From positions 1-37,671 of the forward strand of contig CALVQM010000003.1 of assembly GCA_944358125.1 (NCBI GenBank): a stretch of DNA of 37,671 nucleotides. Reading direction: 5' to 3'. The translations under genes were made by a program, and so were the position numbers. Below the pieces are notes generated by a model, which saw nothing but the letters and a program-made list of their open reading frames with translations, made no database searches and had not been told where the DNA came from. Of the stretch, positions 2,276 through 37,353 are shown one piece after another. The DNA is from an uncultured Bacilli bacterium (GTDB lineage: Bacteria > Bacillota_I > Bacilli_A > RF39 > UBA660). Every line of letters starts with the position of its first letter. Position 1 is the first letter of the stretch.

Positions 2276-3679
2276 TTACTTTATAAAAGTTATGCTTGAT
2301 AAAAATAGCAAAGGAATAAAGATAGCTATTTGGCTAAATATGTTTCCGGTTAAATAGGCGATAAGCAAGAAAAGAGTAATGGATGCAGTAATTAAAACTT
2401 GAAAATAATTGAAATTTTTAATCATTTTAATAATACTTAACACCCATAAACCTGCATACATACCTAAAAATAAGATACAGCCAAGAATACCAAAGGCATA
2501 ATATTGTAAAACGTAATCTCGTTCAATATTAAAAATATTTTGAATGCGGTCATTTGTTATACCAAGCCAAATATCTTTTTTATTATCATTTATTTCTACT
2601 ACTCTTTTAACCATACTAATTTCTAAATAACGATAATCTGCTCTTTTATTAATTGGCTCATTTAAAATATCTAGCCAAAACTCTGGGTCATATTCATATG
2701 GATAACTATGTAAAATGAAATTTTCATTAATCAGTTTTTCTTCATAGTGATTTTTAATATATTCTATATCACTAATATAAGTATCTGCAGTAGATGCAAC
2801 TAGACCTTTAATACTTTTAGGCATTAAATAATCATATACTTCATATCTACTAAAAGTTGGTGAAAACGGAAGAAGAGAAGCATAAACTATTATGATTATG
2901 CCACAAAGTCCGAGTTTTTTCCATTGCAATTTTTCTTTCTTAAGAAAACTTAAAAACATGTAAGCTAGGATTGAGGCAATAAGAACCATTATACTACCTA
3001 AATTTGATACTCTTGTTCCAAGCATTAGGGCAGCAAGCATAATAATAGCTACATACAAAATATTTAGTTTATCTTTAAAGAAAAAATAGCTAGCTAAAGG
3101 AATTAGTACTACTAGAAGACATGCGATTTGATTAGCATACATAAAGAAGCCTTTACTAGCTAATTCATTATAAATATAGTTATTGCTAAACCAGCTAAAG
3201 ATACTTCCTTTTATTACTTCATTATTATAACTACTTAGGGATATGCCAAGGATATTTGTAATAATAATACTGCCACCTATGATAATAATCCAAGATTTTA
3301 TTACTTTCCGGTAATCTTCTTTTTCTAAATTAGAATAATACATTAAATAAATAAAGAATACGGGAATACTCATTTTTACTAAGTAAAGGATTTCATCTAA
3401 ATAGTTATAGTTAAAATTTTCCGGAACTAGTGAATGAAAATCTAGAGCATTCAAATGATGAAATATACCATATATAAGCAAAAAGATTGTATAGATGATA
3501 AGATATTTAATACTTTTTCGGGACTCTTTGTTAATAAAAAATGTCCATAGCAAAAAAATTGCTATGAAAACAATTTGAATTAAAGTAGCATAGTTGTTAT
3601 AAAATATTTCTAGACTAAATACAGGATAGATACACAATAATATCAATAGTAGTCTTTTATAATTTTTAATTTGTAACAT
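2276..3679 (-). CDS. O-antigen ligase/Wzy-like polytopic membrane protein
   Basis: 10+ TM segments; KGFFMYANQ, LMLGTRV, ERDYVLQYYAFGILG motifs; glycan-cluster context. Confidence 0.75.
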   Translation of the reverse strand: MLQIKNYKRLLLILLCIYPVFSLEIFYNNYATLIQIVFIAIFLLWTFFINKESRKSIKYLIIYTIFLLIYGIFHHLNALDFHSLVPENFNYNYLDEILYLVKMSIPVFFIYLMYYSNLEKEDYRKVIKSWIIIIGGSIIITNILGISLSSYNNEVIKGSIFSWFSNNYIYNELASKGFFMYANQIACLLVVLIPLASYFFFKDKLNILYVAIIMLAALMLGTRVSNLGSIMVLIASILAYMFLSFLKKEKLQWKKLGLCGIIIIVYASLLPFSPTFSRYEVYDYLMPKSIKGLVASTADTYISDIEYIKNHYEEKLINENFILHSYPYEYDPEFWLDILNEPINKRADYRYLEISMVKRVVEINDNKKDIWLGITNDRIQNIFNIERDYVLQYYAFGILGCILFLGMYAGLWVLSIIKMIKNFNYFQVLITASITLFLLIAYLTGNIFSQIAIFIPLLFLSSITFIK

Positions 3680-3680
3680 A

Positions 3681-4745
3681 TTAATCCTTCAACTTCTTCT
3701 TTTTGTGTTTAGAATGATCATATAATATATCGGTTTTTAAAACAACAAATAAGAGCAAAATCATTAAGGCAACATAAATCGCTATAGCTATTTTATTATC
3801 GCCTAAAACATAAAATATGGATACAGCCGCAAATAAAATGTTAATAAAATAAATGATTAATATGCTTTTGGTTGGTGAATAACGCATTTTTAATAATTGA
3901 TGATGAAAATGCTCTTTATCAGCTTTACCAATATTTTGATGTTTTAATAATCTTCTTAAAATAGCAAAGGCTGTATCGAATATTGGTATAGCAAGTATAC
4001 ATAATGGAACAATTAAGGATGTAATAGTAGTTATTTTAAATCCTAATAAAGCTATAATAGATATCATATATCCTAAAAATAAACTTCCGGTATCACCCAT
4101 AAATATTCTAGCTGGTGGAAAATTATAGAGTAAGAAACCTAGAGTTGATCCTAACATAATTAAAGATAAAATAATGTCTAGACCACCTATTTGATTAAGT
4201 AAAAAGGCAATAATGGCAATAGTTAAGAAATAAATGGAAGATACTCCGGCGGCTAGGCCATCCAAGCCATCAATAAAATTGATGGAGTTTGTTATAGCTA
4301 CAATAAATAAGGTGGATATAAAATAACTTACATATTCATTAATGTAGAATTTCATACCAAACAAACTAATTTCTGTAAAATAAACTTCACCATAAATTAC
4401 TACTAATAAAGCAGCAGCAATTTGAGCAATTAATTTGTATCTAGCTTTTATCGGTTTAATATCATCAAATATACCTGTTAATATTAAAATAAAACCACCT
4501 ATTAATATTGATATCATTTGCGTATTTATTTCGCCAAATATGGCATATCCAATTAAGAAAGCACCATATATAGCTAAGCCACCTAATCTAGGCATAGGTT
4601 TTTTATGTACTTTTCTTTCATTTGGATAATCTAATGCACCGATGTGAAGAGCAATTTTTTTGGCTAATGGTGTTAATAGAGCACTAATTAGAAAAGTTAT
4701 TGCTACTATTAAAAACACATTAAAACCATTTACTTCTAAGTTCAT
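3681..4745 (-). CDS. tagO: Undecaprenyl-phosphate GlcNAc-1-phosphate transferase (glycosyltransferase family 4, TagO/WecA)
   Basis: RKVHKKPMPRLGGLA, GIFDD, NSINFIDGLDGLA, NFPPARIFMGDTGS, DKEHFHHQL. Confidence 0.9.
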   Translation of the reverse strand: MNLEVNGFNVFLIVAITFLISALLTPLAKKIALHIGALDYPNERKVHKKPMPRLGGLAIYGAFLIGYAIFGEINTQMISILIGGFILILTGIFDDIKPIKARYKLIAQIAAALLVVIYGEVYFTEISLFGMKFYINEYVSYFISTLFIVAITNSINFIDGLDGLAAGVSSIYFLTIAIIAFLLNQIGGLDIILSLIMLGSTLGFLLYNFPPARIFMGDTGSLFLGYMISIIALLGFKITTITSLIVPLCILAIPIFDTAFAILRRLLKHQNIGKADKEHFHHQLLKMRYSPTKSILIIYFINILFAAVSIFYVLGDNKIAIAIYVALMILLLFVVLKTDILYDHSKHKKKKLKD

Positions 4746-4810
4746 ATTACCACCTTATAATTCATTATATCAATAAAAGTTGAATTAGTAAAAGCATTTT
4801 TTAGCATTTT

Positions 4811-4840
4811 AAAAAAGAATGTCCAATTTTTGAACATTCT
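4811..4840 (-). terminator. Intrinsic terminator after the cysS-yugP-like pair
   Basis: Minus strand AGAATGTTCA-aaaat-TGGACATTCT followed by a T-run. Confidence 0.65.
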
Positions 4841-5465
4841 ATCTAAAATAATTAATAAAACTATAGGGCATGGTAGCTATCTTTGTTAAAGAAATTAGAA
4901 GACAATATTTTTTATAATTTTCTATTGGTTTAATTAGACGCTCTTTTTCTATTTGCTCATATAGCTTATCTAATTCTTCTTTACTTTTAAATAAGCTTGC
5001 TAGTAAAATAAATTCTATAATAAAAGCTACTATAAATATAAGTGTACCTAAACGAATTGTAAATATATGATGAGTAATACTTCCTAGAATGATTAATACA
5101 TAACTTATTAGTACTAAAAAAGCATTTATTTTACGAGCTAAAGAAATATTCTTCCGGTTTGGATCAGCTTCTAAAGCAGTGTTTATGGCTATAATCCCTG
5201 CATAAGCATTTTCACCGTCAAAGACATCAGGTGATAATTTAATTACATTACGTTCTTTGTTATAATGATCTAAATATTTACCATTTTTCTTAATAATATG
5301 TGGTTCTTCTTCACAATAAACACTTGTTAGTTTTCTTGCTATTTCAAAGCCTGATAAATTAGCTTTATTTTTTAGTTCTTTGGTCGTTTCGGCAACAGTT
5401 CTAATAAGAATATTTATTAATACTAATAATATTAAAACAATAATAAACAAGATATCTATAATCAT
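4839..5465 (-). CDS. YugP-like (Zn_peptidase_2) membrane protein lacking HEXXH
   Basis: LSGFEIAR, G.YLDHYN....IKLSPDVF match the YugP N-terminal half; the expected AAHExGH is replaced by IAINTALE; overlaps the cysS stop by 1 nt. Confidence 0.6.
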   Translation of the reverse strand: MIIDILFIIVLILLVLINILIRTVAETTKELKNKANLSGFEIARKLTSVYCEEEPHIIKKNGKYLDHYNKERNVIKLSPDVFDGENAYAGIIAINTALEADPNRKNISLARKINAFLVLISYVLIILGSITHHIFTIRLGTLIFIVAFIIEFILLASLFKSKEELDKLYEQIEKERLIKPIENYKKYCLLISLTKIATMPYSFINYFR

Positions 5466-6850
5466 TATTTTACCTCATAGATGGTTCCTTCACGAGTATC
5501 TTTTAAAATAATTCCATCTTTTTCTAATTTACCTCTTATTTCATCTGCTAAAGCAAAATCTTTATTCTTTTTAGCTTCACTTCTTTTTTCAATCATTTCT
5601 AAAATATAAACTTCATCTATATTTTTCTTTTCTTCTTTAAGTAAATCTAGAGATAAGACTTTATCCATTTCTTTAATTATTTCTAGTTTTGTAAGATCGC
5701 TAGTATCCTCTTTTAGAATATCATACAATAAAGTTATGGCATTAGCTGTATTTAAATCGTCTTCTAGACATTCTTTAAATCTGGTAACATATGTTTCTTT
5801 TAGCTTTTCATCTAATATACCTTCTTGTTTTAAAGCTTTTATTCTTGCTTTTAATTTGTTATAAGCGTTCTGTGCACCACTTAAAGAGTCAAGAGAAAAT
5901 GTTAATTGTTTGCGGTAATGACTAAGTAAAACCATAAAACGATAGCTTAATGGATTAAAGCCATTTTCTTCTAAATAAGACACGGTTAAAACATGGCCTT
6001 TCGATTTACTCATTTTACCTGTGGCATCATTTAAGTGTTCCCCGTGTACCCAATATTTACACCATTCATGGCCAAGATAAGCTTCACTTTGCGCTATTTC
6101 ATTGGTATGATGAGGGAATATATTATCTACTCCTCCACAATGAATATCTAAATATTCGCCAAGATATTTTATCGAAATACCACTACATTCAATATGCCAA
6201 CCAGGATAACCTTTACCAAAAGGACTATCCCATTTTAATTCCTGGGAATCAAATTTTGATTTGGTAAACCATAAAGCAAAGTCAGTTTTATTTTTTTTGT
6301 TAGTATCTTCTTCTACAGTATCTCTAACACCACTAATTAGTTCTTCACCAACATGATTAGTTAGTTTGTAATAATCATCTAATTTAGATGTATCAAAATA
6401 TACGTTTCCTCCTGCCTGATAAGCATATCCTGTATCTAATAGTTTTGTAATAATTTTAATGTATTCATCTATGTTTTTGGTGGCTGGACTAACAATATCA
6501 GGTTTTTTAATATTTAATTTTTCCGCGTCTTTAAAGAATGCTTCAGTATAAAATTTAGCAATATCTAATACAGTTTTATTTTCTTTTTTAGCACTCTTAA
6601 CCATTTTATCATCACCAGTATCAGCATCACTTGTTAGATGGCCTACGTCTGTTATATTCATAACACGTGTTACATCAAATCCAATAAACCGTAATGTTTT
6701 TTCTAGTATATCTTCCATGATATATGTTCTTAAGTTACCAATGTGAGCATAACTGTAAACCGTAGGACCACAAGTGTACATTTTTACAACTCCCTTTTCC
6801 CAGGGAATAAAATTCTCTATTTTTCTAGTTAAAGTATTATATAATTTCAT
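5465..6850 (-). CDS. cysS: Cysteine--tRNA ligase
   Basis: MYTCGPTVY, HIGN, NITDVGH, DFALW, PGWHIECS, FPHHTNEIAQ, KMSKS; start taken as ATG 6850. Confidence 0.97.
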   Translation of the reverse strand: MKLYNTLTRKIENFIPWEKGVVKMYTCGPTVYSYAHIGNLRTYIMEDILEKTLRFIGFDVTRVMNITDVGHLTSDADTGDDKMVKSAKKENKTVLDIAKFYTEAFFKDAEKLNIKKPDIVSPATKNIDEYIKIITKLLDTGYAYQAGGNVYFDTSKLDDYYKLTNHVGEELISGVRDTVEEDTNKKNKTDFALWFTKSKFDSQELKWDSPFGKGYPGWHIECSGISIKYLGEYLDIHCGGVDNIFPHHTNEIAQSEAYLGHEWCKYWVHGEHLNDATGKMSKSKGHVLTVSYLEENGFNPLSYRFMVLLSHYRKQLTFSLDSLSGAQNAYNKLKARIKALKQEGILDEKLKETYVTRFKECLEDDLNTANAITLLYDILKEDTSDLTKLEIIKEMDKVLSLDLLKEEKKNIDEVYILEMIEKRSEAKKNKDFALADEIRGKLEKDGIILKDTREGTIYEVK

Positions 6851-7002: not shown

Positions 7003-7035
7003 AAAAAGGATTATTAATAAGCATATTAATAATCC
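7003..7035 (-). terminator. Intrinsic terminator of the 171-aa hypothetical gene
   Basis: Perfect 11-bp stem GGATTATTAAT/ATTAATAATCC with a T5 tail on the minus strand. Confidence 0.7.
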
Positions 7036-7046
7036 AAAATTACAAT

Positions 7047-7562
7047 TTAATGACGAGCTTTATTTTCTGTTTCTTCTAACATATAGCCATATGAGGTATT
7101 TATAGCATCAATTAATTTAGTTGCTTGTTCTAAATTAAGATCTCCTTTTTGACATTTAGTTTTAATATTATTCAAGTGTTGTTCCATTTCCATTTCAAGT
7201 TCTTCTCTAGTTTTAGGTCTTGCTACTAAATGTGATTCACTTGCGTTACTTGCTAAAACGCCTTCCGTTATAACTTTATCTGATGGTCTGGTACCATAGC
7301 GATAGCTTAAATATTGATCAGCAGCCTTTTTAGCTTTTTCTTTTTCAATTTGATTTAAATAATCTTGATGTAGCATTTCTTCTATTTGTTTTAAATTATC
7401 TAGTCTTTCATAGCCTTTATCTACAGCTATTTGAATTGATGTACTACTCAAGGTAATTTCTCCTTGAACCCAGCGTTTCATTAGATCTTCTATTTTTTTC
7501 TCTAATTCCCATCTTTCAGAAAATGCTTTCATATAGCTTTCGTATATTTCTTGACTTTTCAT
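7047..7562 (-). CDS. Hypothetical helical/coiled-coil protein, 171 aa
   Basis: Open ORF with GGGAG RBS and its own terminator; no family recognised. Confidence 0.65.
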   Translation of the reverse strand: MKSQEIYESYMKAFSERWELEKKIEDLMKRWVQGEITLSSTSIQIAVDKGYERLDNLKQIEEMLHQDYLNQIEKEKAKKAADQYLSYRYGTRPSDKVITEGVLASNASESHLVARPKTREELEMEMEQHLNNIKTKCQKGDLNLEQATKLIDAINTSYGYMLEETENKARH

Positions 7563-7772: not shown

Positions 7773-9320
7773 TCATAATTCGTTATTCAGATTGTAGTTA
7801 ATCGATTCTTGTTGTTCATTAATAATCAAGCTTGTAGTTGTAAGTAGCATTCCCGCGATTGATACAGCATTTTTTAAGCTTGTGATAACTACAGTAGTGG
7901 GATCTATTACTTTGGTTTTTGATATTGTTTCAAATTTGTTTTCGAAAACATTATAAATTATATCAAAATCACTGGCTTTTATTTTATTATAAATATTACT
8001 TGGATTAATGCCGACATTTTCTAAAATTTGCATAAACGGTTTGTCTAATGCTTCTTTTAAAATGATTGAACCATTATTTTTTGTTTCTAAATTTTCTTTT
8101 ATTTTTAATAAAATTAAGCCACTTCCGGGAATAATGCCATTTGCTGCACAATTTAGAGCACAAAAGGCATCATCAAATCGCATCTTTTTTTCTCTAGCTT
8201 CCGTTGTAGTAGTAGCTCCCACATAAATAATACCTATTCCGTTGGTTAATTTAGATAGTCTATTACTCTGAAATTCTAATTCAAAGTCATCATCTATGGT
8301 GCTAATTTTTTCTTTTAAGTTATTAATGTATCTTTTTATAACTTTACTTTGCAAATTATTATTAATTGTTGCAAGTTCTTTCGTGATTTTTATTTCTTCG
8401 CACTTTCCTAAATTATTTAAGCTTAATTCATCAGATGATTTTGCTATTTTGGCATTGCTAATTATTTCTAAATCTTTTAAAACTTCCATTTGATGAAGGC
8501 CATATTCCGGTAATTTAAGTAAGGTAACGTTTGTTATTTTACTTAAATTTAAAGATAAAACCTCATTTATTACTTCTTCTGTATAATCAGTAGCTAGTAT
8601 TACAAGAGGTATTCTTTTTTCAATAGTATAATTTATGATTTCACTAATCTCTCCTATTTCGTTTACTTCTTTTAGCATAATTAAGATTAAACTATTTTTA
8701 TATATTATTTCATTTGTGTTATTAAAAAAGTAAGGAGAAGCTAGTAGGGGTTCAAAACTATAACCATTTATAATTTTAGTATAAGTTTCACTGGTTTTAC
8801 TTTCTTCTATCTTGATAGCACTACCCACTTTTAAATACATTCTGGTTATCAGTTTTCCAATGTTTTTGTTGCTAGCAGCGATACTGGCAATATTATAATA
8901 GTTTTCTTCCGTTGGAATTTTACTTTCTTTTTTTATTTCTTCTATTATATTTTCTAAAGCTTCATCTAATTCATTTTTTAATAGGTGAGGATTTAGACCA
9001 TCTTTAATTTTAGCTAATCCACTTTTAAATAGGCTTTCTAATAAAACTAAAGTTGTAGTGGTACCATCTCCTACAGTCTCATCCGTTTTAATAGACGCTT
9101 CTTTGGCAAGAGTAAGAATGGTATTGATCCGTTCATCTTCACTTTCTATGTTTCTAGCTATAGTTACACCATCATTGGTTATAAATGGACTAAACATGGA
9201 ATGATCAATAATCGCATTAGAACCTCTTGGGCCTAAAGTGTTTTTTACAGTACCACATAATAATTCAATTGCTTTTAACTTACATACATTTAATTCTTCA
9301 CCTGTTATTACTTTTTTCAT
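7773..9320 (-). CDS. Divergent group I chaperonin (GroEL/Cpn60 paralog)
   Basis: TLGPRG, ITNDGVTIA, GDGTTT, SPYF, EKKMRFDDA, VIDPT..SLKNAVSIAGMLLTT; no GGM tail; start probably ATG 9320, overlapping the upstream gene. Confidence 0.9.
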   Translation of the reverse strand: MKKVITGEELNVCKLKAIELLCGTVKNTLGPRGSNAIIDHSMFSPFITNDGVTIARNIESEDERINTILTLAKEASIKTDETVGDGTTTTLVLLESLFKSGLAKIKDGLNPHLLKNELDEALENIIEEIKKESKIPTEENYYNIASIAASNKNIGKLITRMYLKVGSAIKIEESKTSETYTKIINGYSFEPLLASPYFFNNTNEIIYKNSLILIMLKEVNEIGEISEIINYTIEKRIPLVILATDYTEEVINEVLSLNLSKITNVTLLKLPEYGLHQMEVLKDLEIISNAKIAKSSDELSLNNLGKCEEIKITKELATINNNLQSKVIKRYINNLKEKISTIDDDFELEFQSNRLSKLTNGIGIIYVGATTTTEAREKKMRFDDAFCALNCAANGIIPGSGLILLKIKENLETKNNGSIILKEALDKPFMQILENVGINPSNIYNKIKASDFDIIYNVFENKFETISKTKVIDPTTVVITSLKNAVSIAGMLLTTTSLIINEQQESINYNLNNEL

Positions 9321-14946: not shown

Positions 14947-15777
14947 ATGAAATTAGAACTAAAAACAATGTATTTTAGCACCTTCATTAATATTGTTATT
15001 TCTATTCTTAAAATTGGTGGTGGTATCATGCTGCACACTTTTACCCTTACAATCGATGGTATTTATACATTTAGTGATTTGGTAACGGATGTTATCTCTT
15101 TATTTGGAATTAAAATCGGAAGAAGACGCGCTAATAAGAATCACCCTTTGGGATATGGCAGAGTCTTTTATATTATAGAATTATTCATGGGTATTCTGGC
15201 TTTTTTAGTTGGTATTTTCGTTATATATTTAAGTTTTAAAATAGATTATCAAAAGCCTTTATTATCCATTATTCTTTTAATTCTTTTTACAGTCTTCTTA
15301 AAATTTATTAGTGTACATAAATTAGCTAGTATGGGGCACTCTTTAAATAGTGAATTATTGCTTGTTTCTAGTGTGGAATCAAAGATGGAAGCTTATTCAT
15401 CAATGGCTTTAATACCCATTATTCTTTTAAGCCAAATTATTCCTAAAATTGATATGATTGGCGGTATTTTTATTGCTATGCTTTTAATTATCCAAGCATT
15501 AAAAATGATAAAACTAAATATTAATTGTTTGATTGGTATTACTGATGAAGATAAAAAAATTAAAGAGGCTATTAAACAGATTGTGGATAAATATAGAGTT
15601 ATTCACATTACCGATTCATCTATTATAAAGATTGGGCCGTATTATCAAGTTACTTTAACTTTTAAAGCGAAAAAAGATATGAAAGTTCATAGTTTAATAC
15701 GAATACAAAACAAAATAAAAAAAGAACTTAAAGCGAAAACTTTGGGCCTTAAGTTCATTTCATTTTATTTTGAATAA
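14947..15777 (+). CDS. Cation diffusion facilitator family transporter
   Basis: NIVISILK, D.IYTFSD, HPLGYGR, TM pattern plus C-terminal cytoplasmic domain; start GTG 14932 or ATG 14947. Confidence 0.85.
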   Translation: MKLELKTMYFSTFINIVISILKIGGGIMLHTFTLTIDGIYTFSDLVTDVISLFGIKIGRRRANKNHPLGYGRVFYIIELFMGILAFLVGIFVIYLSFKIDYQKPLLSIILLILFTVFLKFISVHKLASMGHSLNSELLLVSSVESKMEAYSSMALIPIILLSQIIPKIDMIGGIFIAMLLIIQALKMIKLNINCLIGITDEDKKIKEAIKQIVDKYRVIHITDSSIIKIGPYYQVTLTFKAKKDMKVHSLIRIQNKIKKELKAKTLGLKFISFYFE

Positions 15778-18700
15778 TTAATCATTACTGTAAGTAAGTA
15801 AATTTTTAATATCTTCTTCGTTTAGAGTTGCTAAACTTGCTTCCGCATTTCCTTCAATTAAATTTTCGCTTAATATTTTCTTTTTTGTTTGAAGTTCTAA
15901 TATTCGTTCTTCAATTGTTCCTTTGGTAATTAATTTATTAACAATTACCTTTCTTTTCTGGCCAATTCGATGAGCTCGATCGGTTGCTTGATTTTCTACT
16001 TGAGGATTCCACCATATATCTAGGTGAATTACAATATCAGCACTGGTTAAGTTTAATCCTGTTCCTCCTGATTTTAATGTTAGAAGGAAACAACTAGTAT
16101 TATCACTGTTAAATTTATCAATTAATGGAAGCCTATCTTTACTTTTAGTAGAGCCATCTATGCTGTAAAAACTTATTTTTGCTTTTTCTAAATCTTGTTT
16201 TAATAAATCTAAGATTCTTTTAAAACTAGAAAATATTAATATTTTATGATGTTCTTTTACATAGTCTTTAATCATTTCCAATATTTTTTCTGTTTTAATA
16301 CTTTCTCCTTCATAATTTTCATATAAGACATGGGGATTAATACATATTTGTCTTAGTTTGGTTAATAATTGGAGTATTTTGAAACGTGATGAAGCAAAAC
16401 CAGAGGTAGCGATTAATTCTTCAATTTCTTTTTCTGTTTCTTTTAAGACACTTACATATAACTGTTTCTGCTTTTCTGGTAAATCTAAATATATGTTATT
16501 TTCGATTTTATCAGGCAGATCTTTTACTACATCTTGTTTTTTCCTTCGTAAAATAAATGGCTTTATTTGATAATTTAGATTTGCCAGACGATTTAAGTCT
16601 TCTTCGGTTACATCACTAATATGGTATTTTTCTCGAAATTTCTCGACACTATTTAAATAGCCAGGCATTAGAAAGTCAAATATACTCCAAAGTTCAGTAA
16701 CTGAATTTTCTAATGGTGTTCCTGTTAAAGCAATTTTGGTATGGGCGTGTAGACTTTTTAGTGCTATAGTCATACGGGCTTGATAATTTTTCATGTATTG
16801 AGCTTCATCCACAATACATATTTCAAAATGCATATTGCTATATTCTTCCATATCATTCCTTAATAATCCATAGGAAGTTATAAATACATGGGCGTCGTTG
16901 TCATGTAATGCTTCTATTCTTTTCTTTTTAGAATCACTAATTACTCTTACTTTTATTCCTTGGCCAAATTTTGTAAATTCTTTTTCCCAGTTGTAAACTA
17001 ATGATGTGGGACAAACAATTAAAATTTTGGCATCTTTTTTATCTTTTAATACTTCTTTTATAAAACATATGGCTTGAATACTTTTCCCAAGTCCCATTTC
17101 GTCTGCTAAAATACCCCCTAAATCACATTTGTATAGAGTATATAGCCATTTTACACCCGTTTTTTGATAATCTCTTAGAGTTTCTTGGTCTTCTTTAGAA
17201 AAAGTTATGTCTATATCTTTATATTTGTTAAAATTAGTAATAAAATCATCAAATAAATTGTTTGTTTTGATATCATGATATTTATTTTCTTTTAGTGAAT
17301 CAATGTATAAGGCACGATATTTTGGAATTTCAATTTTGTCGTTTAAAGTGGATGGATCTAATTCTAAATCATCTATTAGAGATCCAAATTCTTGTAATTC
17401 TTTATTTTCTTCTAAATTAATTAAATTACCATTTTTTAGGCGATGATAAGTTTTTTTACTTTTTAAGGAAGCTAGTATACCTTTTAATTCCTCATCATTA
17501 ATATTGTCTAATTCAAAATTAAAAGACATGATACCATCATAGCCAATGCTAAAATCTTTGGTAATACGCGTTTTTTTAATTAAGTTTATTTTATCTAGTT
17601 TTTTACTTGTATATACTTCGTATTTATTTCCTAAATTAGTTAAATTATTTTCCAAGAAATAACCAATAGTATCAATATCATTCATTTCAAATTTGTTTTT
17701 ATTTATTATAAAACCAGCATTTATAATATCTTGCATAACTTCTTCTTCTAAGTCATAGTCTCTTGAGACACTAGTATCATTGCTTAACAGGTTAATTTCT
17801 ATTCCACTATAATTTAGCTTAATTTCACTAGTTAGTTTGTCTTTTAAAATATCTAAATAGATCTTAACACTTGGTTTGGTTATTTTGGTAATTTCAGTTA
17901 TATCATCTGCTATTTGTAGTTTATCGTTTATTACCTTTAAAATACCTTGATTAAATTTTTCTATGTTTTTGTTTTTAAATAATAAAGAGTTTATTTGTCT
18001 GTGATACAATTCTTTTAATAATTTTTGATAATTTTCAGGAATAATATATAAATTATTTCTATAAAGAATATATTTGCAGTTGCTTGTTAAAATATTGTAG
18101 TTTTCAAGATCTTCAATGGTTAAAGAAAAATCTTTTTTCCTATGATTTAGTATAAATTTAGTTGGCAAATCTTCGATAATTTCTGCTATTTTTTCACGAT
18201 TTATTTGTAATTTAGCAATATCAATATTGTGTATTAAATAATCTAAATCTCTTTCACTTAAATCAAAAGGATCTACACTATAATAATAATTGCTAGTTTT
18301 CTCATAATTTGCTAAATAATTAATAACTTTTGTATCTTCTTCATCAAAATAATAATTATCTTTATTATAAGTAAATTTAGTTCCTAATACGTCATCTCCA
18401 CCATTAAAATAAGCATCTAAAAATTTTTCGAATTTTGATTTATTATTTAAAACATATAATTTATTAGTACCAACACTTAATCGATATTGTATTTTATTAT
18501 CATAGAAAGTAATGTTTAGTTGCAATGATGCTTTTTCTTTAACGGACTTTTTGGGATTAGGATTATAAAATATATTTAGAATTTCACTTGTTTCTTCATA
18601 TAAATCCTTTTTTTCACACCTAATTATCGGATAATAATATTCATATAAACAAGCTATAACATGTTCACAAGATTTGTACTTTCTAAACTTTTCACAAGTA

Positions 18701-25160: not shown

Positions 25161-26193
25161 GTTTTAATACCTCCTTTAGTTCTTCAGCAATTGCTTTTGC
25201 TAATAACGGAGGAACCGCATTGCCAACTTGTCTATATTGAGCAGTTCTGGAACCAAAAAAAACAAAATCATCTGGAAAAGATTGAATGCGAGCCGCTTCT
25301 CTAACTGTTGGAATTCTATTAAATATCGGATGAAAATAATTACTATGTGAATTACCCGTATCTATGGTTACCGAGATATCATCCTCATTTAGCCTTTTAT
25401 ATGCTGATGAATGTCTATTATTTCTTTGATTTTCAAATAATTTTTTAGGTATAGCGCTCCAATTTTCACCTTGCTTCACATACGATATTCTTTCCTGAAC
25501 TATAGATGATGGATATTTTACCAAATGATTATAAATTTCTCGATTATTTATCTTAGGGATAAATTTTAAATCATTTTTTGCTCTTTGTTCAAATTGATAT
25601 AAATCTCCAATCGCATCTTTTACAGTTACTTTTTTCTTTACTTTCTTTAATTTTTCGAAATCAAAGGTTGTCTCTTTTGTTATAACAAAAAAATTTCTTA
25701 AGCGTTTTTGTGGAACTCCAAAATCGGCTGCATTTAAAACTTTAAACGTCACATTATATCCTCTATCAGAAAAAATTTCTTGAATATTTTTCTTAGCATA
25801 GCCCTTATTTTCTGTAACAATTTCTTTTACATTTTCTATTACAATAGCTTTAGGATGTATTAAATCAACAAATTTTACAAATTCAAAGAATAATTTATTT
25901 CTAGGATCATCAGCTATTTTATTCCTGTTTGCCGAAGAAAAACCTTGGCAAGGTGGTCCACCGATGATTACGTCTATCTTCTCTACATTTTTAAGCTTTT
26001 TTTTGATTTCTTCTTTACTTATATTTAAGATGTCATAGCAACTTGCTTTCGCATTTTTAAAATTATTTTCGTATGTTTTTATAGCATCTATATTATTATC
26101 AATACCATAAACAATATTATATCCTGCCATTTCAAATCCTTTGCTTAAACCTCCACATCCACAGAATAAATCTAAAACATTATATTTTTTCAT
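25153..26193 (-). CDS. DNA (cytosine-5)-methyltransferase (M1)
   Basis: DLFCGCGG, GGPPCQ, ENV, QKRLR, TVREAARIQSFPDDF, QVGNAVPP. Confidence 0.95.
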   Translation of the reverse strand: MKKYNVLDLFCGCGGLSKGFEMAGYNIVYGIDNNIDAIKTYENNFKNAKASCYDILNISKEEIKKKLKNVEKIDVIIGGPPCQGFSSANRNKIADDPRNKLFFEFVKFVDLIHPKAIVIENVKEIVTENKGYAKKNIQEIFSDRGYNVTFKVLNAADFGVPQKRLRNFFVITKETTFDFEKLKKVKKKVTVKDAIGDLYQFEQRAKNDLKFIPKINNREIYNHLVKYPSSIVQERISYVKQGENWSAIPKKLFENQRNNRHSSAYKRLNEDDISVTIDTGNSHSNYFHPIFNRIPTVREAARIQSFPDDFVFFGSRTAQYRQVGNAVPPLLAKAIAEELKEVLKHE

Positions 26194-33877: not shown

Positions 33878-35179
33878 TTAATCTTTTTTGACTTTAATAA
33901 TGAATTGATAGATATCATTTAAATCTGTTTCTTCTAATGAAATATTAAATCCTCTTTCTTCTAAAGCATCTTTTAATTCACGAACGGTATTAATCGCTGT
34001 TTTTAAATCAATGCCTAGTTTTTCTTCTTGTTTTTCTTCATAATCAGGATCAAGTGTATCGATTAAATTTACAGGATCAAATATTTCTTTGTTATTATCG
34101 GTTGGATTTTCACTCACTTGAGAACCAAAATTATTATTTAAAATGGGACTTGAAGGGTTTGGCTCTCTTTCTTCTGCTATTTTTTCCATAGGTTCAAAGT
34201 TAGATACTACATCTGGCTTTGCTTCTATAGATTCTGAAATGGCTTCTTCTTTGGTTTCAGGGGTAGTTTTAGGTAAATCAATATTTATAGCTGGTGTTTT
34301 TAAAACTGGTTCTTCCATATTCATATTTACTTTTTCATTTTCTAGGAAATTAAAGAAGTTTCCTTTAGAGTCATTCGTTGCTTGATCTACCGGAATGACA
34401 TCAGGATTAAACATTTTTTCTCTTTCAATTTCGCGTAACTTACGAGCTATATCACTTTCTTCATTCACACTTGGTATTTCAGTTGCATGTTTTCTTATGG
34501 CTTCAATATCAATATTTTTTACTAATGGCACATCTGTTTCGTCTTCTTCTTGACTTGTTTCTTCATTTAGTTTTTTTAGTTCATTATCAAGTTCTCTTAC
34601 TGTCATACGTTCATTAATAATTCGTTTTAACCATTTTCTTTGTTCTTCATGAGTTGGTAAAACAAGTAAGCTTCTGGCATGACGTTCACTAATTTTATTT
34701 TCGATTAGGGCTTGCTGAACTTCTTCATCTAAATTTAATAAACGTAATTTATTAGCTATAGCACTTTGAGATAAGCCCATTTTTTTGGCTAGTTCAGCTT
34801 GAGTTAAATATCCTTTATCTAATAAATTTTTATAGCTTCTCGCTTCTTCTATGGCTGATAAATCTCTTCTTTGAACATTTTCTACTATAGCTACTTCGGC
34901 ACTCTTATTATCATCAACATCAGCAATAACAGCGGGTACTTTAGTTAGCCCTGCCATAGTAGCTGCTTTATATCTTCTTTCACCAGCGATTATTTCGTAT
35001 TTATCATTTACTCTTCTTAATACTAATGGTTGAATAATACCATGTTGCTTAATGGAACTAGCAAGTTCTTCTAAACCACGATCATCAAATTGAAGTCGTG
35101 GCTGAAAACGATTAGGTATTATTTCATCAATTGGTACTTGTAAAATATTTTGTTCTAAATTCACTTTCATCAGCCCCAT
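33878..35179 (-). CDS. ParB-family CTPase, nucleoid-occlusion (Noc)-like, with a long acidic insertion
   Basis: PNRFQPR, IIAGERR, ENVQR, QSAIANKLRLL (Noc-type HTH), ISERHARSLL; Noc-like C-terminal domain AINTVR...GF....E......FIIKV. Confidence 0.8.
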   Translation of the reverse strand: MGLMKVNLEQNILQVPIDEIIPNRFQPRLQFDDRGLEELASSIKQHGIIQPLVLRRVNDKYEIIAGERRYKAATMAGLTKVPAVIADVDDNKSAEVAIVENVQRRDLSAIEEARSYKNLLDKGYLTQAELAKKMGLSQSAIANKLRLLNLDEEVQQALIENKISERHARSLLVLPTHEEQRKWLKRIINERMTVRELDNELKKLNEETSQEEDETDVPLVKNIDIEAIRKHATEIPSVNEESDIARKLREIEREKMFNPDVIPVDQATNDSKGNFFNFLENEKVNMNMEEPVLKTPAINIDLPKTTPETKEEAISESIEAKPDVVSNFEPMEKIAEEREPNPSSPILNNNFGSQVSENPTDNNKEIFDPVNLIDTLDPDYEEKQEEKLGIDLKTAINTVRELKDALEERGFNISLEETDLNDIYQFIIKVKKD

Positions 35180-35227
35180 TTGCTTATATTTAATTTTAAC
35201 ATTTTTTTAGAACATTTTCAACTAGCA

Positions 35228-35252
35228 AAAAGAAAAAGGGAGCTTAAGCTCC
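35228..35252 (-). terminator. Terminator overlapping the surface-protein stop codon
   Basis: GGAGC-ttaa-GCTCC followed by CTTTTTCTTTT on the minus strand. Confidence 0.55.
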
Positions 35253-36704
35253 AACTACTTTGAATGGATCAGAAGTACTGCCACTACCTGTCATAGCAAT
35301 GGCTGATTTCAGACTAATTACGGGGCTTACTCCATTCGGGAAAGCCACGCTATTGCTGCCAAGGACGCCAGATGAAGACACATAGAACACTAGAGCAGTG
35401 CCACCGCCAATGCAATACGGAGACATAGTCCAATAATTTTGCCCTGTATATAAATAACTATTCCCACTTCCTGCTAATACATATTCATCAAATGTTATTA
35501 AGCCTATTGGATTTGGTAGTTTTTCATTATCTTGGGATAGTATATCTTCACTATTGCATTGTAAACTTGCTTGACCATTCCTTCTATCAGATGGTGCATA
35601 ATCAAAACTGCTATCCGTATAGCTATCTCCGCTTGCCATATTTCTATCACTACAGAATCCTGTTCCTGTATCGATATATTTTGCTTCATAACTTGCTAAA
35701 TTACTGTTATACCAATTATTTAAGTTTGTCATTATTGTACTATTTTGGCCATAGCCATGTTGACTACTTCCATCGTACACCAACCCTACATAAGTTTTAT
35801 TATTGGATGAACTATTGAATGCACTAGTTCCTATTTGCGTTCCCGCTCCTGTTGTATTAGCTCTCGTTCCTTGATAGATCATTCTAATTGAACCGTCTCC
35901 ATTAATCCTTATAATTCGCCAATAGAACCCTGCAAAAGACACCCAGTTATTTGGATTAGCTCCAGTATAGTAATAAGTAACACCCAGTCCATTATTTGTC
36001 CAATCTGTTATTTGCCCTTGAGTAGGACTTGCTGATAATATTATATCACTCACTTTATACCCAATTGTAACCTCTTTACTTTGACTTTCAGAAACATTTC
36101 CGGCTGCATCTTCTACTCTTACTGTTATAGTATGAACACTATTCTTTTCTAATTCTTCAAATGTATAACTATTTTCTTCTGTTCTTATTTCTTCTTCATT
36201 ATCTAACTTATAATAGTAATAATATACCCCTATATTATCAGTAGCATTTAATTCAATAGTTACACTAGTATCATTATCGCTACTGCTATTAATAGTATTT
36301 ATTACTGGTTTCTCACTATCTGGTATTAAATCAAAATAGACACTACATTTTGTCCCTTTATAATTCATATTCATAAAGGATAAATTACCATCTTCATATA
36401 CTATTTCTCCTCCAGCATCTTTATCATTTACTTCACATGTAGATTGTTCTGTATTTAATGTATATCCCACATGGGGTGCTTTATCAGCACTTATAGTTTC
36501 TGTTCCTTTATTTAAATAAAAAGCTAATATATTAAAGTCAGATGGTGAAAAATTAATAGTTCCCTGTATTAAAGGAATACTTTCTGTAGTTCTATATTTT
36601 GCTCTTGTAAAATTAAGTATAATTGCACTAATCACTCCTACCACTATTAAAGCAATTATAATATTTCTCTTTAAATGACTTCTTTTTAATACCTCATATT
36701 TCAT
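35244..36704 (-). CDS. Membrane-anchored surface protein: N-terminal TM, Ig/Fn3-like domain, C-terminal CLec-like domain; putative DGR target
   Basis: KRNIIIALIVVGVISAIIL anchor; ATDNIGV..YYY...YTF.EL.....HTITVRVEDAAGN; WRIIRINGDGSIR; YWTMSP...GVSPVISL. Confidence 0.8.
   Translation of the reverse strand: MKYEVLKRSHLKRNIIIALIVVGVISAIILNFTRAKYRTTESIPLIQGTINFSPSDFNILAFYLNKGTETISADKAPHVGYTLNTEQSTCEVNDKDAGGEIVYEDGNLSFMNMNYKGTKCSVYFDLIPDSEKPVINTINSSSDNDTSVTIELNATDNIGVYYYYYKLDNEEEIRTEENSYTFEELEKNSVHTITVRVEDAAGNVSESQSKEVTIGYKVSDIILSASPTQGQITDWTNNGLGVTYYYTGANPNNWVSFAGFYWRIIRINGDGSIRMIYQGTRANTTGAGTQIGTSAFNSSSNNKTYVGLVYDGSSQHGYGQNSTIMTNLNNWYNSNLASYEAKYIDTGTGFCSDRNMASGDSYTDSSFDYAPSDRRNGQASLQCNSEDILSQDNEKLPNPIGLITFDEYVLAGSGNSYLYTGQNYWTMSPYCIGGGTALVFYVSSSGVLGSNSVAFPNGVSPVISLKSAIAMTGSGSTSDPFKVVGA
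35315..35435 (-). other. DGR variable-region-like segment
   Basis: 55 G/C in 35321-35420 by hand count, far above the surroundings; run of NNY codons between YWTMSP and GVSPV. Confidence 0.55.
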
Positions 36705-36779
36705 TCTTAAATCTCCTTTATGAAGTTCTGCTTCATTTATTTACCCATTAAAAAGTCTTACTATATTAATGAGTCTCCT

Positions 36780-36821
36780 AGCTTATAGTTAAATTATAAG
36801 CTTGGCTATGTCAAAAGTCAA
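36780..36821 (-). promoter_or_regulatory. Promoter of the surface-protein gene with a palindrome over the -10
   Basis: TTGACT (36816-36821), 17 bp, TATAAT (36793-36798); IR AGCTTATA (36780-36787) / TATAAGCT (36795-36802). Confidence 0.65.
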
Positions 36822-36885: not shown

Positions 36886-37353
36886 GTGATGGAAATGATA
36901 TATGGCAATAAATTGAAAGTTTTAAGAGAAAGAACTGGATTTACTCAAGAAAAATTAGGTGAATATATTGGCGTAACAAAACAAGCTTTTAATCATTTTG
37001 AAAACGAATATACTATCATTCCTATTAAGCATTTGAATGATATATGTAATTATTTTGATGTATCATTGGATTATATTTTTAATTTGACTGAAATTAAAAA
37101 GTACGATAATTATAGCAAAGTTATTCATACAGATCTCATGGTAAAAAGGTTAAAAGAATTTCGTAAAGAAAACAAGCTTTCACAAGAAAAATTAGCAACC
37201 ATTTTAAATGTTGCTAAAGGAACTATAGGTAATTATGAAAGCAACAGAGGAATTATTGCTACTCCTTTTTTATATACCATTTGTAAAAAATATAACATTT
37301 CTGCTGACTATCTTTTAGGCAAAATTGATAGCCCTAAATATCTAAATAAGTAG
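36886..37353 (+). CDS. Tandem double XRE-HTH transcriptional regulator
   Basis: Two HTH_3 repeats: LKVLRERTGFTQEKLG...DVSLDYIF and LKEFRKENKLSQEKLA...NISADYLLG; divergent from the surface-protein gene. Confidence 0.88.
   Translation: MMEMIYGNKLKVLRERTGFTQEKLGEYIGVTKQAFNHFENEYTIIPIKHLNDICNYFDVSLDYIFNLTEIKKYDNYSKVIHTDLMVKRLKEFRKENKLSQEKLATILNVAKGTIGNYESNRGIIATPFLYTICKKYNISADYLLGKIDSPKYLNK

Follow-up and report, generated by a model that had tools for sequence, protein, structure and literature searches.

A probable diversity-generating retroelement variable region in a surface-protein gene of an uncultured Bacilli bacterium, and a possibly distributed set of template-RNA genes behind it

The stretch of DNA analysed here, referred to below as the window, consists of 37,671 nucleotides of contig CALVQM010000003.1 (C3 in our numbering) from an uncultured Bacilli bacterium, whose assembly (GCA_944358125.1, here G000) comprises 105 contigs and 1.21 Mb and is 93.6% complete. 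Near the right-hand end of the window lies the gene P0001 (35244-36704, minus strand), an open reading frame (ORF) whose translation is 486 amino acids long. The predicted protein combines an N-terminal membrane anchor, two immunoglobulin-like (Ig-like) domains and a C-terminal lectin-like domain, and it is this last domain that bears the variable region (VR) considered here. An earlier examination of the letters of the window, the sequence-only reading, had proposed that the gene is a remote target of a chromosomal diversity-generating retroelement (DGR) and that this retroelement diversifies a cell-surface adhesin.

Composition sets the end of the gene apart. Between the motifs YWTMSP and GVSPV lie 28 codons (35334-35417, minus strand), and 22 of them (79%) have the form NNY, compared with 50% of the other 450 codons of the gene. 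Codons ending in C make up 36% of this stretch and 7% of the remainder, and adenine accounts for 14% of its bases against 39% in the remainder. The G+C content of positions 35321-35420 is 0.55, in a window at 0.274 and a genome at 0.284. Across the whole 1.21-Mb genome, 61 islands of 100 nt reach a G+C content of at least 0.50, and coordinate comparison places about 18 of them, roughly a third, on the C-termini of P0001 paralogs and one on a template repeat (TR). This signature, which the sequence-only reading had described exactly as it stands in the DNA, is far from chance.

A plain BLASTN search of the genome with the VR returned paralogs that are 60-79% identical to P0001 DNA across the VR region, and no TR was apparent among them. 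A scan that ignored mismatches at adenines of the subject revealed non-coding stretches on contigs C23, C52 and C7, and BLAST with one TR as the query then gave four elements in total, located at C23:~15716-15975 (minus strand), C7:~25522-25750 (plus strand), and C52:~4668-4939 and ~7006-7195 (both minus strand). Their TR cores are 103-118 nt long and all are rich in AAC codons; three of the four start with ATGTCTCCGTATAAC, while TR_C52a starts with TTG. Read in the frame of the VR, a core translates as MSPYNFNNGNANVFYVNSSGNLNNNNVDW..GVR, and this frame stops a few codons into the spacer that follows. The genome therefore holds four untranslated second copies of the VR, and these differ from it chiefly at template adenines. 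The best of them, TR_C52b, aligns over its positions 0-97 and without gaps to the 97-nt VR (35330-35426, minus strand), with mismatches at 21 of the 30 TR adenines and at 9 of the 67 other bases (Fisher p 6.6e-8). Sorted by TR base, the mismatches affect A at 21/30 sites, C at 4/22, G at 2/20 and T at 3/25. Adenine is replaced by G ten times, by T six times and by C five times; all 21 of these substitutions, which span 35339-35414 (minus strand), lie at codon positions 1-2, and six of the nine non-adenine changes are at codon position 3. This pattern of differences is that of adenine-mutagenic retrohoming. The four TRs also differ from one another at non-A sites.

The two edges of the VR are preserved to different degrees. 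On the 5′ side the conserved boundary TGGACTATGTCTCCGTAT (35415-35433, minus strand) is common to other VRs, and its ATGTCTCCGTAT part is also present in the three TRs other than TR_C52a. On the 3′ side the boundary GGAGTAAGCCCC (35322-35333, minus strand; Gly-Val-Ser-Pro) is degenerate: it agrees at 8 of 12 positions with the 12-mer GGTGTGCGCCCA, which forms the end of TR_C7 and of which TR_C23 has 11/12. The four departures are accompanied by the change of a conserved Arg to Ser. When contig C3 was searched with a TR query, the match was at the VR itself and nowhere else, and a profile of the TR spacer gave no match on this contig.

Each TR appears, from the alignment of 27 elements in 13 genomes (four from G000 and 23 from 12 related genomes), to sit in its own small structured RNA gene, apparently free-standing. 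A TATAAT box lies a few bases upstream of a conserved GGTTAATCT leader, and the leader is followed in order by the TR, by about 140 nt of spacer and by a terminal hairpin, after which a T run often comes. The consensus fold contains 47 pairs. With two TR-internal helices excluded, the remaining 40 pairs are 98% paired across the alignment, and 20 of them show compensatory changes, that is, changes on both sides; none of 500 shuffles reached any of these measures, and sliding the partners lowers pairing to 35-46%. In Helix 1 (10 bp) the leader pairs with AGATTAACC in the spacer so that the TR is looped out between them, and Helix 2 (TATCCT/AGGATA) begins directly after the final bases of the TR, GCGCCCAA. 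The 3′ strand of Helix 2 lies 2 nt from the 3′ strand of Helix 1. In the Bordetella DGR RNA as described from cryo-electron microscopy, an upstream:spacer duplex termed 'cPRT stop' likewise lies 2 nt from the template:primer duplex and halts complementary DNA (cDNA) synthesis, and comparable duplexes are predicted in 207 other DGRs (bioRxiv 10.1101/2023.10.23.563531). By analogy, priming on the RNAs described here would begin at the end of AGGATA, and the first bases to be copied would be those of the 12-mer GGTGTGCGCCCA. No Rfam family matches the TR-spacer elements at E≤0.1, and an nhmmer search of G000 with the spacer profile recovered the four elements already identified and, beyond them, nothing but two weak partial matches (C21, C18).

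Two other features of the TR elements and their relatives were observed. Genes for YhcG/DUF1016 PDDEXK nucleases (E 1e-35) end exactly where two of the TR elements begin, the TR leader overlapping their last codons; these genes are at 4896-5822 and 5902-6828 of locus L007 on C52 (minus strand, in tandem) and at 7933-8475 of locus L005 on C23 (minus strand). The genome also contains a second class of TR and VR, on C83 (VR 2391-2580, TR about 2930-3120) and on the minus strand of C91. Paralogs of this class have a P0001-like N-terminus joined to a different body, and the motif QWTLTP...GVRPS stands at their C-terminus. The gene is followed after about 370 nt by an A-rich copy, in which 60-nt windows mismatch at 12 of 22-23 A sites compared with 3 non-A sites. 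A small ORF precedes this copy, about 100 nt of near-identical 3′ sequence follows it, and the spacer of the main type is absent.

A search of the genome with PF00078 identified three reverse transcriptases (RTs), all on contigs other than C3. Two of them, each 422 amino acids long, have group II intron-type motifs (C94:1798-3066, minus strand; C30:5653-6921, plus strand). The third, of 370 amino acids (C9:16697-17806; RVT_1 match, E 8e-20), is of DGR type and closes the gene order MSL-Avd-RT, in which a 135-amino-acid MutS-like (MSL) protein comes first and a 117-amino-acid Avd protein second. The MutS-like protein matches MutS_I (MutS domain I) at E 8e-5. The Avd protein matches PF22296 (bAvd; E 6e-10) at 40.0 bits, exactly the cut-off of 40, and reaches 37.9 bits with the Avd profile NF033474, under its cut-off of 80; a search of solved structures with this protein alone returned nothing meaningful. 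For the RT, the best match among solved structures was 8ub7_A (E 1.6e-24), which we take to be the Bordetella bRT entry; the next was at 2.9e-12 and the best group II intron RT at 8.6e-12. The IGNMTSQ and YMDD motifs of the C9 RT align with the same motifs in 8ub7_A, and [ILV]GxxxSQ is a hallmark of DGR RTs. The genome thus encodes a DGR-clade RT with Avd beside it. Examination of C9 by repeat scan, TR BLAST and spacer profile found no TR-spacer, and the sole repeat pair near the RT turned out to be three tandem small genes rather than a TR and a VR. These paralogous genes (145, 156 and 142 amino acids) occupy 4422-5882 of locus L004 (C9:9000-20000), about 1 kb upstream of the MSL-Avd-RT cassette.

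These results bear on several statements of the sequence-only reading. It had reported neither TR nor RT in the window, and the TR query, the spacer profile and the PF00078 matches do place all of them elsewhere. Those of its named checks that could be run all favoured its interpretation. One of them was a search for a non-coding copy that differs almost only at A positions and lies near a DGR RT and Avd. Such copies are indeed found on C7, C23 and C52, and the RT and Avd exist on C9 together with a MutS-like gene, but no TR is located beside the RT. The bias towards adenine is likewise borne out, with the qualification that nine differences at other bases remain and that the 3′ boundary is degenerate.

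We compared 24 genomes of the same genus and 16 of other genera. Of the 24 same-genus genomes, 17 have a strong RT match (E 1e-100 or better, 58-90% identity) and 22 have the TR-spacer element; in the other two, G004 and G015, neither a strong RT match nor a TR-spacer was found. The 16 genomes of other genera gave no comparable match to the RT or the TR-spacer. All 12 of the RT loci that were fetched contain the MSL-Avd-RT cassette and have no TR-spacer within 1.5 kb, and in G021 the RT is at 139 kb and the TRs at 1-3 kb of one contig. Judging from these sequences, the separation of RT and TR appears to be a conserved state across the genus. Some relatives also carry the TR-spacer elements in runs: in G016 about eleven of them lie head to tail in 3.2 kb (L032, G016:C20:22870-26078), with differing TR cores, and similar runs are present in G003 (C17), G018 (C25), G002 (C15) and G022 (C49).

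The predicted architecture of P0001 is consistent with a protein displayed at the cell surface. Its N-terminal helix (residues 1-36, window 36597-36704, minus strand; residues 3-36 in the full-length model) contains a hydrophobic stretch and may act as a signal-anchor, in which case the remainder of the protein would be outside the cell. Residues ~55-215 form the two Ig-like domains, the only part of the full-length prediction that is confidently modelled, and a profile search gave weak matches to Big_13 and OmpL47 over residues 146-214. The same full-length prediction, made from a 22-sequence alignment, had a pLDDT (predicted local distance difference test) below 50 for residues 216-486 and was superseded there by a domain-only AlphaFold2 model built on an alignment of 60 diverse sequences (pLDDT 94.5; predicted template-modelling score, pTM, 0.93). 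In this model the C-terminal domain, about 270 amino acids long (residues 215-486; window 35247-36062, minus strand), adopts an enlarged C-type-lectin-like fold related to DUF6273, and the VR occupies model residues 216-243, inside the last strands of the domain.

Structural neighbours support this assignment. With VIA-align, the domain aligns to 9qa6_A, the N-terminal domain of the Thomasclavelia ramosa IgA peptidase IgAse (Z 13.8 over 201 residues), to 8q4e, the C-terminal domain of Legionella Lcl (Z 6.9), and to TvpA, a target of the Treponema DGR (2y3c; Z 5.2, 125 residues aligned). These are followed at Z 4-5 by dozens of C-type lectin domains, and most other rows are C-type-lectin-like domains (CTLDs). 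The Z values are individually modest, yet the list of neighbours appears uniform. Foldseek against the PDB gave a single match at E≤0.001 (9qa6), plus weak lectin matches, and a profile search of solved structures from the domain alignment returned nothing meaningful. The authors of the 9qa6 structure describe its N-terminal domain as a double-size C-type-lectin-like core, and they report this domain to be dispensable for IgA cleavage (PMC12237041). Model and neighbours together place the VR in a C-type-lectin fold at the C-terminus of the protein, as the sequence-only reading had anticipated. DUF6273 (PF19789) is matched by 7 of 22 close relatives (best E 1.9e-5) and is the precomputed label on several database matches to P0001, whereas P0001 itself has no match to it at E≤1, and its C-terminal 272 residues matched no Pfam family. 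At E≤0.001 the family of the lectin-like domain comprises 5049 cluster representatives, and some proteins contain as many as 11 copies.

P0001 is one of about 30 paralogs, in line with an earlier suggestion that it might be one of many. TBLASTN located P0001 or parts of it on more than 30 contigs, with 31 matches to its C-terminus. Two short matches (C5, 16-213; C91) were omitted beforehand, and the other 29 C-termini were scored against the four TRs, with the result that 16 show adenine bias at p<1e-3. The cleanest VRs are those of C44, with mismatches at 16/30 A sites and 3/67 other sites, and C81, with 22/31 and 6/72. Boundaries could be anchored in 25 of the 29 C-termini. All 25 keep a TGGAC.ATGTCTCC-like 5′ boundary, and nine (on C44, C81, C57, C13, C38, C62, C37, C20 and C6) have the exact 12-mer GGTGTGCGCCCA at the 3′ boundary, although elsewhere they are 60-80% alike. 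The presence of the exact 12-mer in diverged paralogs suggests repeated overwriting or a homing constraint.

Variation at the P0001 locus itself was examined in contigs from four sequencing runs of four other studies (X2, X3, X6 and X8) over 34900-36800; these are contigs, in which rare variants are invisible, rather than reads. An X2 contig spans 34900-35678 with no differences, and an X3 contig spans 35180-35480 with one difference and an identical VR. A 4005-nt X8 contig bridges 35270 and 35451 by 189 different letters where the window has 180, and the X6 contigs break at the same two places. The uncovered interval 35284-35411 in X6 and X8 was not taken as absence, and only the bridging X8 contig was used. 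Related proteins show the same kind of exchange. P0002 and P0003 are nearly identical to P0001 until about residue 414 and then continue with a different C-terminal block that is three residues longer and has the canonical GVRPVIN. P0005, conversely, has a body 83% identical to that of P0001 and a C-terminal block that is identical, VR included. The exchanged block is about 60-70 residues long (window 35271-35450), so that one body is found with several cassettes and one cassette with several bodies. Because the X8 contig, P0002, P0003 and P0005 all show swapped blocks, whole C-terminal cassettes evidently move between alleles and paralogs by recombination. The allele differences seen in the contigs and protein matches consist of the swapped cassette, and no A-specific variation among alleles was seen in them.

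We consider it very probable that the VR of the window originated through a DGR. In the mechanism that we propose, small, independently transcribed RNAs would each carry an AAC-rich TR that is preceded by a 5′ leader and followed by a structured spacer. The single DGR-type RT of the genome, encoded on C9 with Avd and a MutS-like protein and far from any TR, would copy the TR, with misincorporation opposite template adenines. The cDNA would then take the place of the homologous sequence in a target gene, with the boundaries ATGTCTCCGTAT (5′) and GGTGTGCGCCCA (3′) as guides. In addition, recombination exchanges whole C-terminal cassettes among alleles and paralogs. The VR of the window is itself probably no longer rewritten, or is rewritten only rarely. 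It looks frozen because it carries nine non-adenine differences, has a 3′ boundary at 8/12, and is unchanged in X2 and X3 and on the P0005 body. The complete statement, in which a DGR wrote this VR, the C9 RT used remote TR RNAs in trans and this copy is now frozen, seems to us to have slightly better than even chances. With similar reserve, we lean towards viewing the system as a 'distributed' DGR, wherein a single MSL-Avd-RT operon lacking a TR would act with a library of free-standing template-RNA genes (four assembled in G000, with arrays of at least ten in tandem in relatives) and would rewrite the lectin-like tips of about 30 paralogs while recombination shuffles the cassettes. P0001 would thus carry an ordinary, probably retired member of the VR set, and it is the surrounding system that is unusual. 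The proposal that P0001 is the remote target of a chromosomal DGR diversifying an adhesin therefore holds for the origin of its VR, while the evidence does not extend to current diversification of this copy.

Several findings weigh against this account. No TR is adjacent to the RT gene, and the link between the C9 RT and the TR RNAs is drawn from their co-occurrence and from the resemblance in RNA layout rather than from adjacency. TR-spacers are present without a strong RT ortholog in five genomes (G011, G013, G014, G017 and G020), three of which have no RT closer than 34-46% identity. Several stop codons interrupt the RT reading frame in G009 (contig C43) and G012 (contig C50), both of which still have TR-spacers, and the DGR system in these two genomes may be decaying. 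With nine non-adenine differences to its best assembled TR, the VR of the window falls outside the strict A-only TR/VR criterion of Wu et al. (2018), which tolerates minor exceptions, and no assembled TR agrees with it at every non-adenine site. The GC-rich 3′ boundary that VR and TR would share in a DGR target, resembling the initiation of mutagenic homing (IMH) sequence, is likewise retained at only 8/12 bases. The cognate TR may be unassembled, because the assembly is 93.6% complete in 105 contigs. Moreover, selection on the paralogs could add to the adenine bias, because A-rich template positions coincide with hypervariable codons, and the spread of a single clone, instead of inactivity, could account for the identity of the VR in X2 and X3.

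Other explanations share some of this evidence. It is possible, if somewhat doubtful, that the same DGR still acts on the VR of the window, with the cognate TR missing from the fragmented assembly and the non-A differences reflecting this missing template. The state of the assembly (93.6% complete, 105 contigs) would allow for such a loss, relatives have many more TR elements than the four found here, some of them in tandem arrays, and the assembled TRs already differ mutually at non-A sites. The VR also retains an intact 5′ boundary and an A-site signal (21/30) as strong as in better copies. What speaks for retirement instead is the 3′ boundary, off at 4/12 bases with Arg changed to Ser, the recurrence of an identical VR on a different gene body and in contigs from two further studies, and the location of 6/9 non-A differences at third positions, as drift would give. 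We judge it improbable that recombination acted by itself, with the TR elements serving as silent donor cassettes for gene conversion of the expressed C-terminus and no reverse transcription involved. Arrangements of silent donor cassettes with gene conversion do occur in antigenic-variation loci of other bacteria, and they would accommodate the whole swapped C-terminal blocks of P0002, P0003 and the X8 contig, the identical cassette on the body of P0005 and the tandem arrays in relatives. However, gene conversion would keep the AAC codons, whereas the differences observed are specific to element adenines and all three other bases replace A. The swapped blocks exceed the TR-homologous part, which points to other paralogs and not TRs as the donors, and the elements, preceded by a TATAAT box and closed by a terminal hairpin, lie in covarying RNA structure, in a genome that has a conserved DGR RT with Avd.

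We give very little credence to the idea that P0001 reflects ordinary paralog divergence under selection, or compositional chance, such that its NNY and G+C richness would derive only from Gly, Ser, Cys and Val content. The region does encode many Gly, Ser and Val residues, and DNA identities of 60-79% are what ordinary paralogs might show. Such divergence fits poorly with non-coding copies that carry an A-specific pattern, with an exact 12-mer GGTGTGCGCCCA and a 5′ boundary that are kept at the DNA level across diverged paralogs, and with the contrast in C-ending codons (36% against 7%) inside one gene. The presence of the TRs in 22 of 24 related genomes argues against their being assembly artefacts.

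Many parts of the system have precedents, and remote targets, MSL, Avd and the C-type lectin (CLec) fold are known DGR features (PMC5758913). The Treponema denticola DGR is likewise chromosomal and has several remote surface-protein targets with a C-type-lectin-like fold (TvpA); Wu et al. (2018, PMC5758913) count seven targets located away from its RT, more than for any other DGR that they surveyed. It is described there as having one TR beside the RT and an HRDC accessory gene, whereas the system reported here has a TR-less RT cassette, Avd and MutS-like accessories, at least four TRs elsewhere and adenine bias in 16 of 29 candidate VRs. A MutS-like accessory gene accompanies 16 of the 372 DGRs in that survey, and its 'Architecture D' MSL DGRs, including that of Legionella, share with ours a small MutS-like gene, avd and RT (PMC5758913). 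TRs are usually directly adjacent to the RT according to Wu et al. (2018), in contrast to the 12 of 12 loci here with no TR within 1.5 kb. The DGR RNA of Bordetella phage BPP-1 (avd-TR-Sp) is similar in that pairing between the spacer and an upstream segment loops the TR out, this duplex lying 2 nt from the one at the TR 3′ end (bioRxiv 10.1101/2023.10.23.563531). It differs in being within the phage avd-TR-brt transcript and serving one target, while the RNA described here is apparently a free-standing gene in several to many copies, unlinked to avd and RT. In Thiohalocapsa PB-PSB1, for which DGR activity in trans is reported, the diversification of incomplete loci and remote targets is also best explained by an RT and/or TR located elsewhere. 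Its nine loci, however, come from four complete DGRs that each have their own RT and TR, the incomplete ones being transposon-degraded (PMC10907252), whereas the separation of RT and TR reported here appears conserved across a genus.

The departure from published descriptions, as far as the accounts cited here go, is therefore the systematic separation of RT and TR together with the multiplication of TRs as free-standing RNA genes. Our literature search found no natural DGR with several TRs, TR arrays or orphan TRs, although supplementary survey tables may list exceptions; in two DGR papers, 'multiple TRs' refers in the passages concerned to several strains in one person or to engineered templates. 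The pipeline of Roux et al. (2021) requires one repeat within 1 kb of the RT (PMC8144416) and would therefore skip the C9 RT.

In this 1.2-Mb genome the enzyme stands apart from its putative templates, several separate RNA genes carry these templates, and the targets make up one of the largest paralog families. To our knowledge, DGRs are the only natural machines for targeted protein hypermutation in prokaryotes. If the RT acts in trans on many template RNAs, then censuses of DGRs count too few such systems, everything that the enzyme needs for recognition is contained in the RNA itself, and gut bacteria with reduced genomes devote a sizeable share of their coding capacity to a variable surface. 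If the distributed arrangement is real, standard DGR finders, for which a repeat has to lie no more than 1 kb from the RT, would overlook it entirely, and a 1.2-Mb genome would possess a combinatorial surface repertoire. Nature would then also provide a case of many templates programming a single RT, the design aimed at in engineered DGR mutagenesis. The window itself illustrates that a compositional signature noticed by eye can flag a true VR and, if this copy is indeed retired, that a VR can outlive its activity.

The neighbourhood of P0001 offers a possible layer of control. A gene with a double helix-turn-helix (HTH) of XRE type (36886-37353, plus strand; HTH_19 and HTH_3, E 1e-23 to 7e-24) is divergent from P0001, and paralogs of this gene lie beside 14 of the 24 family members considered in G000, 160-310 nt upstream and divergently transcribed. 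Among the ten family members that lack an adjacent HTH gene, at least three sit at contig ends. The divergent HTH genes could control which paralogs are expressed. At gathering threshold, the only Rfam hit in the window was a tRNA. The end of the contig (37362-37600), downstream of the HTH gene, has a somewhat raised G+C content (0.39-0.42) and holds an ORF of 71 codons whose composition is odd. Neither an Rfam match nor a TR-spacer was found in this interval, whereas the equivalent HTH gene on C52 does have a TR-spacer downstream.

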